DNA of 64,000 nucleotides from Malacoraja senta (taxonomy: Eukaryota): positions 22,074,001-22,138,000 of the forward strand of contig CM075989.1 in the NCBI GenBank assembly GCA_038087875.1. Direction: 5' to 3'. Numbering within the stretch: position 1 is the first letter of the stretch; each line of letters starts with the position of its first letter. The notes under the pieces were generated by a model. It did not search any database and had not been told where the DNA came from. It saw only the letters and a program-made list of their open reading frames with translations. The position numbers were made by a program, and so were the translations under genes. Positions 1 to 42,600 of the stretch are shown here, piece by piece.

Positions 1-91
1 TCTCTCTCTCTCGTCCTCTCTCTTGCTCTCTTCTCTCTCTCTCTCTCTCTCCTCTCTCATCTCTCTCTCTCTCTCGTCTCCTCTCTCTTCT

Positions 92-181
<90 letters not shown>

Positions 182-190
182 TCTCCCTCT
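1..190. repeat. (CT)n microsatellite, truncated by the window edge
   Basis: Nearly pure CT dinucleotide run. Confidence 0.98.
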
Positions 191-429
191 CGCCAAAGGC
201 TACCTTATTTTATATTTATCAGTTTACACTAATCGGTCGTGCAAACAGATGACGGTCGATTAAATGAATGATTCTCTTCAATAGGCAAATTGATCAGGTG
301 AGGAGGAGACTAGCCCTCCTTCAGTTCACCTGCCAGAAAAAAAAAGATTTATCTCACTCAGTACTTTCCAACGCGGTTCCGTCAAGATTCACAACTTCCT
401 GTGTCCAGCGGAGACTCCAATCCTTCACG

Positions 430-481
430 ATGCAAATAATTTCGGACACTGAACAAAGACAGTTGCAAGCAATGATGTTTG
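430..481 (+). CDS. NR2F2: Putative alternative first coding exon of NR2F2 (isoform lacking the DNA-binding domain), MQIISDTEQRQLQAMMF
   Basis: ATG at 430, 17 codons plus 1 nt, then a strong donor G|GTATGT (481/482) in phase 1, which matches the exon 2 acceptor and gives ...[12 protein letters not shown]. Resembles the recalled N-terminus of human isoform b (MQAVWDLEQGKYGF-AVQRGR). Confidence 0.75.
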
Positions 482-3400
482 GTATGTTTTTAATAAATAT
501 ATATGTACTTTTGTTTACTTAATCGAGGGGAATTACGTTTTTCTTGCTCAAAACATTATCGTTCTTAAACACCTGTGTTAATTAATCTATATTATTTTGA
601 CACGAAGCAGGTTTTGAATTCGACACATACTTCTGGCCTATTGAATATCCGTTAATAACAATTAAAGTTTTGCTTTAATTATTTTCTAGGTATAATGGCA
701 ACAAATCATTAAATCAAGGTCGGGTTCTCTTTCTGACTATTTTGAGAAACCAACGCATAGTTTCTTATGCTCTGGGTAGATAATATACGTGTTTCCAAAT
801 GGATAGCACCGGTCGGAAATCCAATTGAACAGTGAATAGGTTACAGTGCCGCACGACAGTGTAATATTGGGAAATATGCAAAATAACCAGCAGAAATAAG
901 CATACTCGCCAACCCCGAAATAAACCAAGGGGATTGGAATCTTTCTAAACCGGGTTCCAGCCGTGTACGCAAAAATCCATCGCCTCTAACCCCGTGTTTC
1001 AATGAATTAGATTTGTTTTTCAATCATTGCTAAATTGCTGTGTAATAGTGGTTTGATTTACAACGTTGAATATCGCCGGCGAGCTCATTAAAAAAAAACT
1101 TTTCTCTCAATATAAGAAATAAGAACTGAATCGTCGCAAAATCTATCAAGTAAAACGTTGCTACAATCAACAGATTTAATTTGAACTGTGTATTAGAAAT
1201 TGGTACTCACCGTTTTAATCTAGATCCAGATACTCATCTGATGATTTTTGTGTGGGAAATGTATATTTATTTATTTGAGGGGCGAAGGAGCCGGCATCAT
1301 TTTGGCTTGGCTTTACTGTTTTAGATGAACCGTTTTTAGAAGGGGGGAAAAAAGGTCAATTAGCAATCGGTTGTTTTGGAAATAAGACCAATTCCTGGCA
1401 CTTAAGTCAAGCCAAGCGTAGAGGCAGATCTATACAAAACAAAGCGACGGAGATCACGGAGACCCGTTCAGCAACGTCCGAATCAATTAGAGAAAAATCC
1501 TAAAGAATTAATCATATTAAAGGTGCAGAAGTTTTTTTTCGGGGTATAAAGGACGTGTTGTGAGCAAGGAGGCGCCGCGATCGCTTTGAATGGCTGTTCA
1601 GCTCCGGAGTTCTACAGCGACACTCCATACGCTAGGTGGCAGCCGGATACTGTACAAGATTTTGACAAATTCTCCAGCATATGCTGCGATTCTAACACTG
1701 TAAATTTTTCAGAAGCCCGCTGCACTGACAGCTCCCGGCGGTTATCAAAGTGCCACAAGTCACCGCTTAAAAACTGCAATGACTTTGAGATCACCGGGAC
1801 ACAATGGGAGCCACTTTCCCCTATTCATTGTGTTGAGATGTAGAGAGAGAAGGAGAGGGAGGGTGGGAAGAGGGAGAGAGAGCAAGAGAGAGAGAGAGGG
1901 GGGGGGGGGACAGGGTGAATTCACAGGGAACTCAAATTCAATAGATTTAGCTGGTTATCAGAGAACAACTGGAAAATAAGTGGCATCTAGTTCGTGGAAG
2001 AAATAGGTTTCAATAAATATGCCACAGTTGGCATGCAACACAATATTAATTTACCAAATCCTGTACACCTTCATACCTTGGAAACTATTTAAACTCCGCT
2101 GATTGGTTTCTCTCTAGTTTGGTGTCGGAACAACTCAAACTTACTTTTGACAGTATCATATAAAGTGTATCCTTACTGTCTTATTAAAAATACTAAACAG
2201 CGATTCAATTTTGTACCAGAAAACGTGTTTCAAACTTTTGCCTGCACCTCTTAAATGAGCACTTAGCAACACGCATCCTTGGCTGGATAACATTGATACG
2301 CTGGAGTTTAATTACTAACAAAATATCTTCATTTCCTATTTCCCCAAACTAACCGCCCAGTGCACTCCAGTCTGTCGGCTATCTGCTCAAATTAAATTAA
2401 TATTTTTGCCAGGCACATTGAAGCCGATGAAGTTAAAACCACGCGTACTTGTTCCTGTAAGTTGCAACATATATGGTGTCGGACCGCTTAACGGGAGGGT
2501 TTGTGTTCGTGTCTTTACCGACCCAAGTGAGCGTAGTTGCTGTACAATTGTGAACTGGTCATTTCAAGAATAGGGAGGTTATTTACCTCCAAGTAAACAC
2601 GGAGGTAATTTTTTTTAATCACATGCCAGTAATCGCTGGGAGGCTACAGCGGTTACTGTACCCAAATATTATGTGCATTCGGGTAGATATGTGATAGATG
2701 AGGAGAGGAGAGAGGAAAATTGTACCTCCCTCCAAGTAACGGTATTTAACATTCTACCCATTGAACTTCAAAGTAAACACCTGTTTAATGCAATGTTCCC
2801 ATATGTGTGCGTTATATCCTTGGACGGGTATAATTCCTTATTTTATATATTAACCGCGTAACAATGCGAGCATCGACAGGGGTGAGAATCTCTGAATATT
2901 CTCGGTAACACATACGATGATATCAATTTTGAACGGACCATATCAAGGGTAAAGGATGCATCTAACATCTGCTTTAAAGTGCGTGTGTATTAAATTGTAC
3001 ACTTTTTTTTAAATTAAAGTACCGTGAAATGTAAAGATACAATTGGGCGCGAGCGGATTCTAGATAGCACCCAGCGTCCGACAATAATGCCTTTTCCTTC
3101 ATACATACCAATTCAATTCCATGCAGATATTTAGTATACTAGATGATTTTCGGGAAGTATTAATTGCTGCAATAAAATATAGCTTATAAGACGACTGGAC
3201 TCTCCAAAAACATTGAATTTACGTAAGTTTGATATTCCTCACGACAATATTAGTAATTCTGCTAGTTAATTCGAGTTAACTCTAGTAGCATTACCAAGAG
3301 AGTAGCCCTATCTGTCCAGAATGACCGCTGTACCTAATGTGACATCAATGAGAATGTCTATTTTTCCCCAAAATAAACACATGATACGTTGAAACCCATT

Positions 3401-4584
3401 AATATTGGGAAACAGGGAAGAACATCATATCGGAACAACTCAATTCTGAAGCATGATTCTCTTCTATATAGTTTCGGACATGTTGATGTATAACTGCATA
3501 TCCTCACGTCTATATCAGTCTTCCTATATGTTACAATGTATTTAGCTGATCAGTTATACGCATACTTCAAAGCTATTTTTCACTCTTTAGTATTTCAAAG
3601 GTAACGCGTTATTTATCCGAATTAATAATGGTTCATCAGATGAATGAGATTCTCTCGAGTATTCATGGGGTTTTTTCCAAGGCTAGTCACCTTGTCGAAC
3701 GCACAGAAACAATTCTTCTCCATAAACTGACCGCAGCTGATTTCTGACATTATTTCACTTCGTTGCATTTGGCCGCATTTATTAAGTTTCCTAAAAAAAA
3801 TCTAGCTGGCGTTAGGATGTCCCAACTCATACAATAGCAATCGTCGCTAATGTTACATCTTCAGCATCAACTTCGGCCTCTGATTTAAAAAAAAGATGCG
3901 TTTTTCTGTAATAATTTTGTCTTGACGGACCTTACACATTTGCAGCAATAAGCTTATCATAGAATCCTTCAAAATTGTATACACATAGTAGGCATATTGC
4001 AAACTCTGGAGTAATAATAATGCCAAATATACTATTCATATTTCAAAATTCCACCCTCACAAGGCGCGCTTGCATATATGATTGTAATTGGGAATATTCA
4101 ATGTCTGCTGTTGCATGAGTTTGCTGTTGTTTTTTAATTTCATATCCTTTATTAGTTGATTTAATATAATCTGTGTATTAATTTGTATCTATGGGTAGCT
4201 CATTTGAGAAAGTTGCATTTATTAAAGAAAAATCTACCGTCGCACCCATCAAAACCCATCTTTGAAGATTTATTTTTAATGAAAAGAGAAAAAGTGAAGG
4301 GAGGTTTGGGGGTGTCTGTGGCGTGGAGTGTGGGGGGGGGGAGAGAAGTAGCTTTTTTTTTGGGGGGGGGGGGGGGAACTTATTTTTCAAAGTGGACCCT
4401 CTGCGCATGGATTTCATGTAAATTTGCTGGCGGCCAGGATGTGTTAGATAATATGGAAGGTGCCCATCCAATGCGGTGCAGGGGGCGTGCTACAAGTTCC
4501 AGCCCCTCGAACCTAAAGCCCTGACCAGTCGGCTTTGATTGTCAGTCGCCAGAAGCAGGCGCTTGGCTCCGTCACTCGGCAGCG

Positions 4585-4651
4585 CCTTATAAGGAAATCA
4601 TCTCCATAGAAACGTGTCAGTTTGAATAGTCGTGTCAAAGTTCACTATATA
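4585..4651 (+). promoter_or_regulatory. NR2F2 main core promoter: CArG box, DR1 element and TATA box
   Basis: CCTTATAAGG at 4585-4594; GTGTCA-A-AGTTCA at 4632-4644; TATATA at 4646-4651, about 950 bp upstream of the ATG. Matches the recalled DR1/TATA layout of COUP-TF promoters. Confidence 0.8.
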
Positions 4652-4889
4652 CAGGCATCCGCGCAGATTCCCCCTTTCAGAAAAATTACTCCGCAAGCTC
4701 GCTCCTTCAAATCGGATTCACTTCCAACCCCTTTTGCATATTTGATCAGTTTGATTATCTCCTCTCTTCCTTTATTTCCCTGCCTCTTCTCGCATGAGAG
4801 AGGTTGCATAGCTCTTCCCTTTTTTTTTGCACGACGTCGACTCTTTTTTTTTGTAGTCCCTTTTCGCTAGCGAGTTGTTGACTCTCATC

Positions 4890-4890
4890 G

Positions 4891-4928
<38 letters not shown>

Positions 4929-4935
4929 TGAGTGA

Positions 4936-4968
<33 letters not shown>
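4890..4968. repeat. (TG)n microsatellite in the predicted 5'UTR
   Basis: Interrupted TG run. Confidence 0.95.
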
Positions 4969-4972
<4 letters not shown>

Positions 4973-5214
4973 TCCAGCACTACCGGTACGGCGAAGAATC
5001 TATGATCAGTTGATGGTCGGTCACTTCTACTCCGGATCGTGCATCTGCCTGCAAGAGACGAGCCTTTTTTTTGCTTTCAGTCTTTAACCTTTCGTCCCTC
5101 TTTTTCCTTTTTTGATGGGTTTCCTGAATGGCTGACTGCGTGTTGCCCTGGTCTTGGCCCCCCGACAATCGAATCTTCTCTTCCGATCGGGTCTGAACTG
5201 CTGCTGCTTGCTGC

Positions 5215-5430
<216 letters not shown>

Positions 5431-5509
5431 GTATTTTTTTTTTGGTCGGCTCATCGCTTCTCCTTCCTTCATTTTCTCCCCACCCCCGATCCAAAAGACA
5501 AGACCTGTT

Positions 5510-5550
<41 letters not shown>

Positions 5551-5596
5551 TTTTGTTTTGTTTTTTTTTGCTGCCTGATAACACTCTGCCCGAGAT

Positions 5597-6008
5597 ATGG
5601 CAATGGTAGTTAGTACGTGGCGAGACCCGCAAGACGACGTGGCCGGAGCTCAAGTCACACAGCCACCTCCGCCTCAGCAAGGACCGCAACAGCCTTCCGG
5701 AGCACCCCTTACCCCGCAGACCCCAGGCCAACCTGGAGGTCCGGGCACGCCGGCCCAGTCCAACCAGCAGCCAAGCGAGAAACAGCAGCAGCATATCGAG
5801 TGTGTGGTGTGCGGGGACAAGTCAAGTGGCAAACATTACGGCCAGTTCACCTGCGAGGGCTGCAAGAGTTTCTTTAAAAGAAGTGTGCGCAGAAACTTGA
5901 CGTATACATGTCGTGCCAACAGGACCTGCCCAATAGACCAACACCATCGCAATCAGTGTCAGTACTGTCGCCTGAAAAAATGCCTGAAAGTCGGCATGAG
6001 ACGGGAAG
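5597..6008 (+). CDS. NR2F2: NR2F2 (COUP-TFII) coding exon 1: A/B region and two C4 zinc fingers
   Basis: [12 protein letters not shown]...[36 protein letters not shown]...CLKVGMRRE; donor G|GTATT at 6008/6009, phase 1. Confidence 0.97.
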
Positions 6009-6758: not shown

Positions 6759-7364
<606 letters not shown>

Positions 7365-8782: not shown

Positions 8783-9109
<327 letters not shown>

Positions 9110-11690
9110 ATAGGAAGGGGGAAAAAGGCAAGTGACATTATTTTGCAAATTCCTTCTGTAAAGAAGGAAATAAAAGGCTGTTACAAGTTTACCTATGTGA
9201 CGCACAAAAAAAATTGAAGAGTGGGAAGAATAAAAAAAAGGACTGTGGATTTCAATGACTGTACACGAACTTAAAAACAAACGCATTCAAAAACTCTTCT
9301 GTGTCGTTCAGAACAACTTGCTACTTATCATTTTGTAACAAAAGGAAATTAGTCTTTTATTTTGGTTTATTTTGTAAACTTTTGAGAAATATCGATATAA
9401 AGATAAGTGCATTTAAACAAGAATTTCAAAATTAGGAGGAAAGAAAAATGACATTTTTCCAAATTATTATAAATTGTCCGGTGTCTATGTATCTATAGCT
9501 GTTTTGTATTATTCCTGGTTTCAAACCAGTCTCCTCTGTGATTCTCTACTAATAATTTTGATATAACCATTGCTTCTTATCAGATACGGTGTATCACGTG
9601 AATATGTTCTGCAAGAATTAAAACGGAACCCGCTAAAATGTTAGATGAAAAGGTTTTTTTTAAAAAACAGAATCGCAACTTAATGCTGGAAGCGCACTTA
9701 TAGTGTTAACTCAAAATACGTTTAATTTGGGGGGGAAATGGACTGCAGACCTATATTAAATGATACACACTTGTAATTTAAAAATCCATTGTTGAAAACT
9801 CGTTAATATTGACATGTGGGGGGTGGGGGCGGGAGTACAATGTGGGTATATATCTGAAAGCAAAGATCCTTTATGTGTCCAAGACACAGTACAATATTTT
9901 TCATTAAATCTATGTGGCTCAATTTAGTTCCTGTTGCAGTATAGAATCGTACGAGGTTCCAAAACACGCCTGTTTGTATATTTCCCACCCATTTGTAACA
10001 ATGATAAACCCTTAGCCCTTTTAAAAGGAAAAACAACCACGATTTATTTTCTTGGATTCAGCATGGAACTCAATGTCGGCACTTACTATTTTACGTGTGG
10101 TTAATTAAGTATCTGGAGTTTACAGTCGTGTATACAAGCTGAAGGGTTTTTTTAAGTGCAAAATTTCTGTACTGTAAAAGTTATGATTGGATTGTTTGGT
10201 CAGTCTTGTGTGTTATATTCAAGAAAAAAATGAAAGTATTCGGAGATTATAATATTATTTGATATATGGAACTTTTCGCTGTTACAATTGTATGTTCACC
10301 CAAGGAAAAAAAAAAATCTCATTACAATGGTCAAACATCGCAGTTTACTGGAGTCATTACAATTCGTGCATTATTTGTCTTATTTACTCTATATACCTGT
10401 ATAGTTTACCGCCACAGTCTGTAGTAGTGGACAAACCACATGCTTTTTCAATGAAAGCATAAGTCGTGGACTCATGCTGCTCCTTGCCTTTAGGTCTTAG
10501 CGATGACACCCTAAAGATACAGTCAAATGGCCCCTGTACGACACGCCGTACCCCTTTCCTTTTTAAATTCAAAATGCCATGGGGATTTTGACCACCGACC
10601 CTTATTTAGTTCTAACTTAAGTGCCTGTGCAACCAATGTACATTAGACAGGTGTTAGGAAGCATGGATCATTATGTATGTTAATGGTCAGGGTTTTGTTT
10701 TGAAGCTTATTGTGTCTGAAGTTCACGCACATAACACACTTAAACAAGCAATTGCTACTAGGAACAGTGTTGATTGTAAATAAAATATATTAAATGAGAT
10801 TTATTCCAAAAAAAAAGTATGTCTGGAAAAATGTGGTTGCCAATTTTTGTTATTGGAAGATCTTCAAACGGAGGGTGATGTGGCTGACGTTTGATGTGTA
10901 GCACTACAAGTGAGCCTGATTTTATGTATATAAATATAAATTCATTTGAATTTTTATATATGGAAATAGACTGTGAGAGCATGGCCACAGGTCGCGAATA
11001 CATTTTACATTTGTTACATACATGTAAATGTTTGATTGTATAGAGGATATACATTTGGGCGAATGTTTGGCTTCAGTGCTCCCATATACCCTTGTTTAAA
11101 AGCAAAACACACACACATACACACACACATACACACACGCACACACACACACACACACACACATACACACACGCACACACACACACACACACACAAAAAG
11201 CAAAAATAATAACAGAGCGAGCTGGCTTGGGTTGGCCAAGCTATAGGTTCCAAGCTTTTTCCGGTAGTGCTGCAGTGTGAAAACTTGCATTTTGTCCCTT
11301 TTTTTAAAGAAAAAAAGAAAAAAAACCCTTTTTTTTGTGTGTGGCTTTCGGCCGCATTCTACATCATGTTATGGGTTGCACAAAAAAAGAATCATTTTGT
11401 ATAGTTGATGGAACAGTGATCTTTACCTGTTATAGAGACAGATATGGACCAGAAATGATGTATGATTGTCATTATTAACACGTTTGCAGCTGACCCGCGT
11501 TTTTTTTTACTTCAGGGTATTGCTACGCTGTTCTAACTTATAGATTGAGCCTTTTCAGATGTTTTTTATTGCAAGTACTATGTGTGTGGAGTTACTACGC
11601 CAGACTCCTGTTTGTGTTAGCTATTGTATACAGCGTTTTTGTTGTAAATTGTTCTTGGTATTAAATTATAATTTATGGCTTTGAAACAAA
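9110..11690 (+). other. NR2F2: Probable long AU-rich NR2F2 3'UTR (3' end uncertain)
   Basis: No interspersed repeats. Blocks at about 9320-9360, 9480-9570 and 10150-10240 resemble the recalled mammalian UTR. Candidate poly(A) signals AATAAA at 10779-10784 and ATTAAA at 11660-11665. Confidence 0.55.
11108..11195. repeat. (CA)n microsatellite
   Basis: Seen directly. Confidence 0.95.
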
Positions 11691-14174: not shown

Positions 14175-14374
14175 NNNNNNNNNNNNNNNNNNNNNNNNNN
14201 NNNNNNNNNNNNNNNNNNNNNNNNNNNNNNNNNNNNNNNNNNNNNNNNNNNNNNNNNNNNNNNNNNNNNNNNNNNNNNNNNNNNNNNNNNNNNNNNNNNN
14301 NNNNNNNNNNNNNNNNNNNNNNNNNNNNNNNNNNNNNNNNNNNNNNNNNNNNNNNNNNNNNNNNNNNNNNNNNN
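14175..14374. other. Assembly gap (200 N)
   Basis: Run of N with a round length, so probably a placeholder. Confidence 1.
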
Positions 14375-40944: not shown

Positions 40945-42600
40945 GGAAAACACACACCTCCAGATTCAGGGACAATTTCTTCCCAGCTGTTATCAAACAA
41001 CTGACCCATCCTCCCAACAACTAGAGAGCAGTCCTGAGCTACTATCTGCCTCATTGGAGACCCTCAGGCTATCTTTAATCGGTCTTCACTGGACTTTATC
41101 TTCCACTAAATGTTATTCCCTTTATCCTGCATTGGTACACATTTGGAAAGTGGTGAAATCATTGGACAAAGTCAGCATGGATTTACGAAAGGTAAATCGT
41201 GTCTGACGAATCTTATAGAATTTTTCGAGGATGTAACTAGTAGAGTGGATAGGGGAGAACCAGTGGATGTGTTGTATCTGGACTTTCAGAAGGCTTTCGA
41301 CAAGGTACCACATAAGAGATTAGGATACAAGCTTAAATCACACGGTATTGGGGGTTCAGTATTGATGTGGATAGAGAACTGGCTGGCAAACAGGAAGCAA
41401 AGAGTAGGAGTAAACGGGTCCTTTTCACAATGGCAGGCAGTGACTAGTGGGGTACCGCAAGGCTCAGTGCTGGGACCCCAGCTATTTACAATTTATATTA
41501 ATGATCTGGACAAGGGAATTGAAAGCAACATCTCCAAGTTTGCGGATGACACTAAGCTGGGGGGCAGTGTTAGCTGTGAGGAGGATGCTAGGAGACTGCA
41601 AGGTGACTTGGATAGGCTGGGGGAGTGGGCAAATGTTTGGCAGATGCAGTATAATGTGGATAAATGTGAGGTTATCCACTTTGGTGGCAAAAACGGGAAG
41701 GCAGACTATTATCTAAATGGTGGCCGATTAGGAAATGGGGAGGTGCAGCGAGACCTGGGTGTCATGGTACACCAGTCATTGAAAGTAGGCATGCAGGTGC
41801 AGCAGGCAGTGAAGAAAGCGAATGGTATGTTGGCCTTCATAGCAAGAGGATTTGAGTATAGGAGCAGGGAGGTTCTACTGCAGTTGTACAGGGTCTTGGT
41901 GAGACCACACCTGGAGTATTGCGTACAGTTTTGGTCTCCAAATCTGAGGAAGGACATTATAGCCATAGAGGGAGTGCAGAGAAGGTTCACCAGACTGATT
42001 CCTGGGATGTCAGGACTTTCATATGAAGAAAGACTGGATAGACTTGGCTTATACTCGCTAGAATTTAGGAGATTGAGAGGGGATCTTATAGAAACGTACA
42101 AAATTCTTATGGGGTTGGACAGGCTAGATGCAGGAAGATTGTTCCCGATGTTGGGGAAGTCCAGGACAAGGGGTCACAGCTTAAGGATAAGGGGGAAATC
42201 CTTTAAGACCGAGATGAGGAAAAACTTTTTCACACAGAGAGTGGTGAATCTCTGGAACTCTCTGCCACAGAGGGTAGTTGACGCCAGTTCATTGGCTATA
42301 TTTAAGAGGGAGTTAGATGTGGCCCTTGTGGCTAAAGGGATCAGGGGGTATGGAGAGAAGGCAGGTACGGGATACTGAGTTCGATGATCAGCCATGATCA
42401 TATTGAATGGCGGTGCAGGCTCGAAGGGCCGAATGGCCTACTCCTGCACCTATTTTCTATGTATCTATGTATGTATCTATGTACACTGTGGATGGCTCCT
42501 TTTTAATCATGTATAGTCTTTCCGCTGACTGATTAGCACACAACACAAGCTTTTCACTGTACTTCGGTACACGTGACAATAAACTAAACTAAACTAAATA
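40945..42600 (+). mobile_element. Rex1/Babar-type 3' fragment split by the CR1 insertion
   Basis: 40945-41140 and 42481-42600 rejoin to match the uninterrupted copies at about 23940 and 44845. Confidence 0.75.
41141..42480 (+). mobile_element. Young 5'-truncated CR1 LINE with open reverse transcriptase frame to 42378
   Basis: QHGFTKGKSCLTNL, YLDFQKAFDKVPH, GVPQGSVLGP, KFADDTKL and FFTQRVVNLWNSLP with no stops over about 410 codons; 3'UTR and short tandem tail. Confidence 0.95.

Follow-up and report, generated by a model that had tools for sequence, protein, structure and literature searches.

An upstream alternative first exon of NR2F2 in Malacoraja senta and the predicted COUP-TFII form without DNA-binding domain

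Background

The locus described here raises the question of whether NR2F2 (COUP-TFII) of a cartilaginous fish has, besides the canonical receptor, an upstream first exon for a form missing its DNA-binding domain (DBD), and how old such an exon might be. According to the part of PMC10073109 available to us, human isoform 2 (Iso2) of NR2F2 arises from an upstream transcription start site (TSS) under methylation control, is devoid of the DBD, and binds the AF-2 region of isoform 1 (Iso1). It moves targets up or down depending on the context, while chromatin binding of Iso1 is mostly unchanged, and the same text reports that Iso2 drives melanoma metastasis under a methylation switch and that neural crest cells express it (PMC10073109). 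In the available sections of a review, short NR2F2 forms are described only for mouse and human, and their action is given as unknown (PMC7016888). Short variants were nearly 1000-fold rarer than variant 1 in human gonad-like cells, as stated in the accessible portion of PMC10768475.

At the level of search results, literature searches returned no paper on an NR2F2 short isoform in cartilaginous fish; Yamazaki 2013 and Rosa and Brivanlou 2011 may discuss its conservation. The main text of the Nr2f evolution paper PMC8608329, in its available part, contains no occurrence of “isoform” or “splice”. The DNA analysed is a stretch of 64,000 nucleotides of the Malacoraja senta genome (hereafter the window), and positions refer to its first letter unless stated otherwise.

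Results and discussion

The NR2F2 locus of Malacoraja senta

The window contains a three-exon NR2F gene with the canonical ATG at 5597, exon 1 extending to 6008, exon 2 at 6808–7335, and exon 3 from 8835, which together code for 404 aa. This product is identical to skate NR2F2 (P0326) in 403 of 404 residues when the 7-aa insert of P0326 is gapped, compared to 377/404 for skate NR2F1, and a separate NR2F1-like locus is found on contig C1. By these comparisons, the window gene is NR2F2 of a skate-like fish, being closer to NR2F2 than to NR2F1. Its coding parts are as follows.

5597..6008, + strand: coding part of canonical exon 1, with the AF-1 region and both zinc fingers (zf-C4 being residues 68–136 of P0326); skipped in the short isoform
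6787..6807, + strand: alternative acceptor extension of exon 2, which adds 7 aa in frame and is present in P0326, P0193, P0288 and P0322
6808..7335, + strand: exon 2, coding for the hinge and the initial ligand-binding domain (LBD) portion; common to both isoforms
8835..9109, + strand: coding part of exon 3, with the rest of the LBD, AF-2 and the stop codon

The acceptor at 6787 had been missed in the preliminary description of this DNA; a short product that uses it comprises 291 aa. Inserts similar to that of 6787–6807 are also present in models of electric ray, paddlefish and Xenopus.

Structure and annotation of the alternative first exon

The upstream features are listed below; X5, X7, X9 and X11 designate sequencing runs of other organisms whose contigs match the exon.

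1..194 and L008:9905-10000 before the window, + strand: CT microsatellite, in total about 290 bases long with its portion ahead of the window, compared to about 10 in relatives
195..481, + strand: in-window body of the NR2F2 alternative first exon; contigs of X7, X9 and X11 cover 215–481 and that of X5 covers 383–481, and matching stops at 481 in all
268..429, + strand: in-frame upstream ATG268 with a 54-codon extension, T at –3 (weak context); used in NCBI models and overlooked in the preliminary description
430..481, + strand: 17 codons plus one base from ATG430 (A at –3, likely the main start), probably homologous to bony-vertebrate isoform-2 N-termini
482..487, + strand: phase-1 splice donor GTATGT, with junction letters in X5, X7 and X9

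As described before, ATG430 opens a run of 17 codons that ends at the phase-1 donor TTG/GTATGT (481/482), and splicing from 481 to the exon 2 acceptor at 6808 and on to exon 3 stays in frame and yields 284 aa. This form contains no CxxC motif, compared to three in the canonical 404-aa form. Window 200–520 has a single match in the genome. With a rough donor matrix, 13 GT sites in 190–5590 scored within 1 bit of the 481/482 donor or higher, four of them with an in-frame phase-1 ATG, and taken from the sequence alone the combination of ATG430 and donor is within chance expectation. Since it is one of four similar candidates, outside evidence is required, and it is the junction contigs and the database models that raise the exon call above chance. 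A strong GT at 298 was also considered as a donor and rejected; it would be in phase 0 from ATG268 (28-aa product), and it is read through in X7, X9 and X11. The unspliced ORFs 430–519 and 268–519 are absent from the protein collection, and the translation of 268–480 gave no Pfam match.

Words of the exon occurred in 23 runs, none of which is recorded as RNA (17 are RNA by guess) and none of which is known to derive from M. senta. Eight of the 23 were aligned on 195–900, a stretch that excludes exon 2, so that a junction becomes visible as an unmatched end. In X5, X7 and X9 (three of the eight runs, representing three organisms and three studies), one contig each matches up to 481 and continues with an identical 29-letter tail that agrees with the start of exon 2 (6808–6836) in 28 of 29 letters, a length below the 31-letter bridging bar of the tool. 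These contigs carry neither strand nor level information. The X11 contig ends exactly at 481, which would be compatible with a branching at this point, either to the two acceptors (6787 and 6808) or into unspliced RNA. Contigs of X1, X3 and X4 continue into the intron and look genomic (X3 and X4 are flagged as probably DNA), and X15 contributed only a 35-base intron piece, leaving the exon uncovered.

A protein search with the translation of 268–480 retrieved two matches among 24 candidates, namely P0406, COUP-TF2-like isoform X4 of Amblyraja radiata (thorny skate; 338 aa, 96% over 71 aa, cluster of 2), and P0407, isoform X3 of Rhincodon typus (whale shark; 339 aa, 74%, cluster of 3). Both are predicted gene models; both join the alternative exon to the same exon-2 residue and contain PF00104 but not PF00105, and residues 97–338 of P0406 match the COUP-TFII LBD structure 3CJW. 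The 17-residue segment of P0406 is identical to that of M. senta, whereas P0407 has Thr at the position of Met430 and a middle segment that looks frame-shifted and then restored when compared to window 310–345. Because NCBI models of thorny skate and whale shark already include the exon, it is not “hidden”, as had been suggested, and the gain is an age estimate and the start-codon question rather than a new system. In a search with exon 2, none of the 120 matches listed (of 1,226) was a short form from a chondrichthyan. Likewise, no chimaera or lamprey NR2F2 short form appeared among the up to 15 listed members per cluster, which is not evidence of absence. Taken together, NR2F2 has an alternative first exon that precedes its canonical start by about 5 kb; this exon is real, already annotated and probably the ortholog of a studied isoform, to which its age and the turnover of start codons are modest additions.

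The extent of the exon had been given as 240..487. Its donor end stands; its start at 240 probably does not, and the 5' letters of the contigs place the beginning of the exon likely about 200 bases before the window. Contig sequence of X7, X9 and X11 continues from 215 in the 5' direction by 136, 114 and 408 letters, with 5' ends that map to approximately –202, –184 and –478 if no indels are assumed; these are contig ends and not transcript starts. The loose 5' letters of these contigs connect sequence around 191–214 with an anchor located 100 bases ahead of the window, and the CT microsatellite therefore likely belongs to the alternative exon's 5' UTR. CCAAT-like motifs at –320 and –262, a GC motif at –250 and a TATA-like motif at –242 precede the window, and no clear CpG island was found. 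The position of the contig ends near these motifs is only a hint of a separate TSS.

Choice of the start codon

Three ATGs, at 249, 264 and 268, precede ATG430; all have a pyrimidine at –3, and ATG430 has an A. Under the standard scanning rule, these contexts make ATG430 the likely main start, an assignment that we somewhat favour for M. senta. No change is listed at 430–432 in any of the seven runs covering these positions, and Met is also present in P0406. The preliminary description was right about the ATG and its codons, while its use as start codon is contested by the Thr of the whale shark.

The exon and its splicing might be the same with the main start located elsewhere, i.e., at ATG268 (338 aa), at Met 472 or 475, or at an exon-2 Met (261 aa), in which case the 17-aa leader would be dispensable. 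The frame from ATG268 is open in the window, in P0406, and in P0407, which lacks Met430, and both models start at the equivalent of ATG268, in contrast to the 284-aa reading from ATG430. ATG472 and ATG475 have purines at –3 and form a Met pair common to the whale shark, and a 261-aa DBD-less form has been modelled in little skate. However, ATG268 has a T at –3, lies 4 bases after the stop of uORF249 and is overlapped by the uORF from ATG264; X7 has a deletion there, and in X9 and X11 the frame does not match. Moreover, Met430 aligns with Met1 of the bony-vertebrate forms. We regard a main start other than ATG430 as rather unlikely.

Coding capacity or regulatory by-product

Alternatively, the importance of the upstream transcript could lie in the RNA itself or in a regulatory by-product, namely promoter or enhancer activity or control through the 5' UTR, with little short protein being made and the exon being conserved as non-coding DNA. 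Such a role would agree with the conservation of the untranslated part, since 215–429 is also about 94–95% identical in relatives, with the three upstream ATGs, with the absence of the start Met in whale shark, and with the rarity of short variants in some human cells (available text of PMC10768475). On the other hand, all 19 variant sites listed for relatives (five of them indels) fall into 215–429 and none into 430–481 (P ~0.02–0.03, with 1–2 differences per contig unlisted). The likeness of the peptide furthermore reaches tetrapods, and effects of the human protein have been reported in the part of PMC10073109 at hand. A purely regulatory significance appears improbable to us.

Probable homology to isoform 2 of bony vertebrates and age of the exon

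Databases contain NR2F2 short forms with a 13–14-aa leader on the same acceptor from mammals, lizards, turtles, birds, amphibians, bichir, sturgeon and teleosts. The primate leader of P0144 and P0147 is presumably that of human Iso2. Variant 2 of human and mouse (Iso2, NM_001145155, COUP-TFII_V2) resembles the fish form in its upstream location, its alternative first exon, the lack of the DBD and the same LBD, judging from the available portions of PMC10073109 and PMC7016888. The 281-aa forms of mammals, lizards, amphibians, bichir and sturgeon carry a 14-aa leader on the same residue as in M. senta, the leader of which comprises 17 aa and is thus three residues longer than those of tetrapods. 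Two further features set the M. senta exon apart from isoform 2, namely an additional in-frame ATG farther upstream and a long CT repeat in the likely 5' UTR.

For a ranking of the leader peptide, 11 distinct bony-vertebrate leaders (12 records) were compared with 1,898 overlapping ATG..GT phase-1 candidates from 114 kb of genome. By mean score, the window peptide ranked first of the 1,898, a score reached by one of 20,000 shuffles; by group, its rank was 3 for tetrapods, 2 for bichir and 26 for teleosts. A held-out sturgeon leader, which shares six of the first ten residues, placed it at rank 5/1,898 (15/20,000 shuffles), and a held-out conger eel leader gave no match (rank 180/1,898; 3,305/20,000 shuffles). 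With 11 unrelated alternative N-termini, ranks of 311–1775 were obtained. Homology of the leaders is therefore good for tetrapods, bichir and sturgeon and weak or absent for teleosts. Peptide, phase and position together indicate that the leader is probably homologous to that of isoform 2, in line with the agreement noted in the preliminary description.

Upstream exons that skip the DBD could also have been gained independently in cartilaginous and bony vertebrates, the likeness of the peptides being due to chance. The old phase-1 intron behind the DBD, kept in all Nr2f subfamilies according to the available text of PMC8608329, could accept any exon with a phase-1 donor, and in gene models of NR2F2, NR2F1 and hagfish the same acceptor is combined with many unrelated N-termini; besides, the matching stretch is short, and teleosts score weakly. 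The first rank among 1,898 candidates and the single shuffle in 20,000 nevertheless speak against coincidence, as do the residues shared with the sturgeon leader, the background-like scores of unrelated N-termini, and the location of both exons upstream of the canonical TSS, which renders independent gain quite improbable. Since the exon is present in ray-group fish and in a shark and its peptide resembles that of bony vertebrates, a jawed-vertebrate origin of the exon is likely. Of the earlier proposal that a two-promoter receptor/modulator arrangement dates back to the jawed-vertebrate ancestor, the part concerning the origin of the exon is thus likely to hold, based on peptide comparison.

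That the junction contigs represent a processed DNA copy or an assembly artefact instead of spliced RNA is hardly credible, for although the runs are RNA by guess only and the joined form is unreported in DNA runs, an identical junction at a GT-AG intron occurs in three organisms and three studies, the genome has one match of the exon and no extra NR2F2 exon-2 copy among six matches, and the NCBI models of two species use the same junction.

Proposed mode of action

Overall, we consider it probable that the upstream exon is spliced to exon 2 to give a COUP-TFII with only the LBD, which likely goes back to the same jawed-vertebrate exon as human isoform 2 and likely modulates the full-length receptor. 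A separate promoter about 200–250 bases before the window would drive the upstream transcript. Its mRNA would skip the exon for AF-1 and zinc fingers and enter the canonical gene at the phase-1 intron, and leaky scanning past the weak ATGs at 249, 264 and 268 could lead ribosomes to ATG430. The predicted product would consist of hinge, LBD and AF-2 and would lack zf-C4. By extension from human cells, the short form may bind full-length NR2F2 via the C-terminal domain and exert context-dependent effects; by this analogy, a modulator role in M. senta seems reasonably likely. Should the exon indeed go back to the jawed-vertebrate ancestor, a conserved role of the isoform in development would be likely, and the isoform would be separately deletable in zebrafish or Xenopus and mappable in skate embryos.

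Other COUP-TF forms without DNA-binding domain

DBD-less models of NR2F1 (Stegostoma isoform X4, P0328; amniote P0151 and P0053) resemble the fish NR2F2 form in that an alternative start is joined to the same phase-1 acceptor and only the LBD is retained, but their leaders are unrelated to the NR2F2 leader. Intron 1 of NR2F1 in M. senta (L009:9680-9698; G000:C1:115436979-115436997) harbours a candidate six-codon ATG exon with a phase-1 GTAAAG donor, the peptide of which matches the leader of zebra-shark P0328 in five of six residues. This suggests a separate DBD-less NR2F1 form in elasmobranchs, predicted from sequence. In contrast to the NR2F2 exon, with which it has no DNA similarity, the candidate is located in intron 1 and not upstream. 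In the 30 kb examined around NR2F1, we detected neither a paralogous copy of the NR2F2 exon nor an NR2F1 leader of the amniote type. In hagfish, a 309-aa Nr2f model with only the LBD (P0364) carries an unrelated 41-aa leader.

Since the NR2F1 and hagfish leaders are unlike the NR2F2 exon, forms with only the LBD may have arisen more than once. Tentatively, such COUP-TFs might be an old vertebrate device and not a mammalian add-on. In this view, the NR2F2 exon would go back to jawed vertebrates or further, NR2F1 of rays and sharks would possess an unrelated start exon of its own in intron 1 and a hagfish gene a third one, and start codons would turn over. If this is true, the whale shark, having lost the ancestral Met while keeping an open frame, would indicate that selection keeps the DBD-less product and not its leader.

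Exon 2 of NR2F1 occurs twice, at G000:C1:115437214 and C1:115559146 (L009, L012), 122 kb apart, and the 10 kb compared are 99.76% identical. This probably reflects a duplicate in the assembly, or perhaps a tandem duplication of recent date. Long ORFs gave no indication of a further protein-coding gene in the remainder of the window; an open 422-aa frame at 41110–42375 looks like a LINE reverse transcriptase, which we take to be of the CR1 type, and 14175–14374 is a run of 200 N. Non-coding blocks that are alike between NR2F2 and NR2F1 (68–86% identity) were observed at window 4522–4771, 5120–5375 and 9325–9623 and at L008:5047-5126; they comprise core promoter, 5' UTR and 3' UTR sequence as well as, about 4.9 kb ahead of the window, an element of 81 bases.
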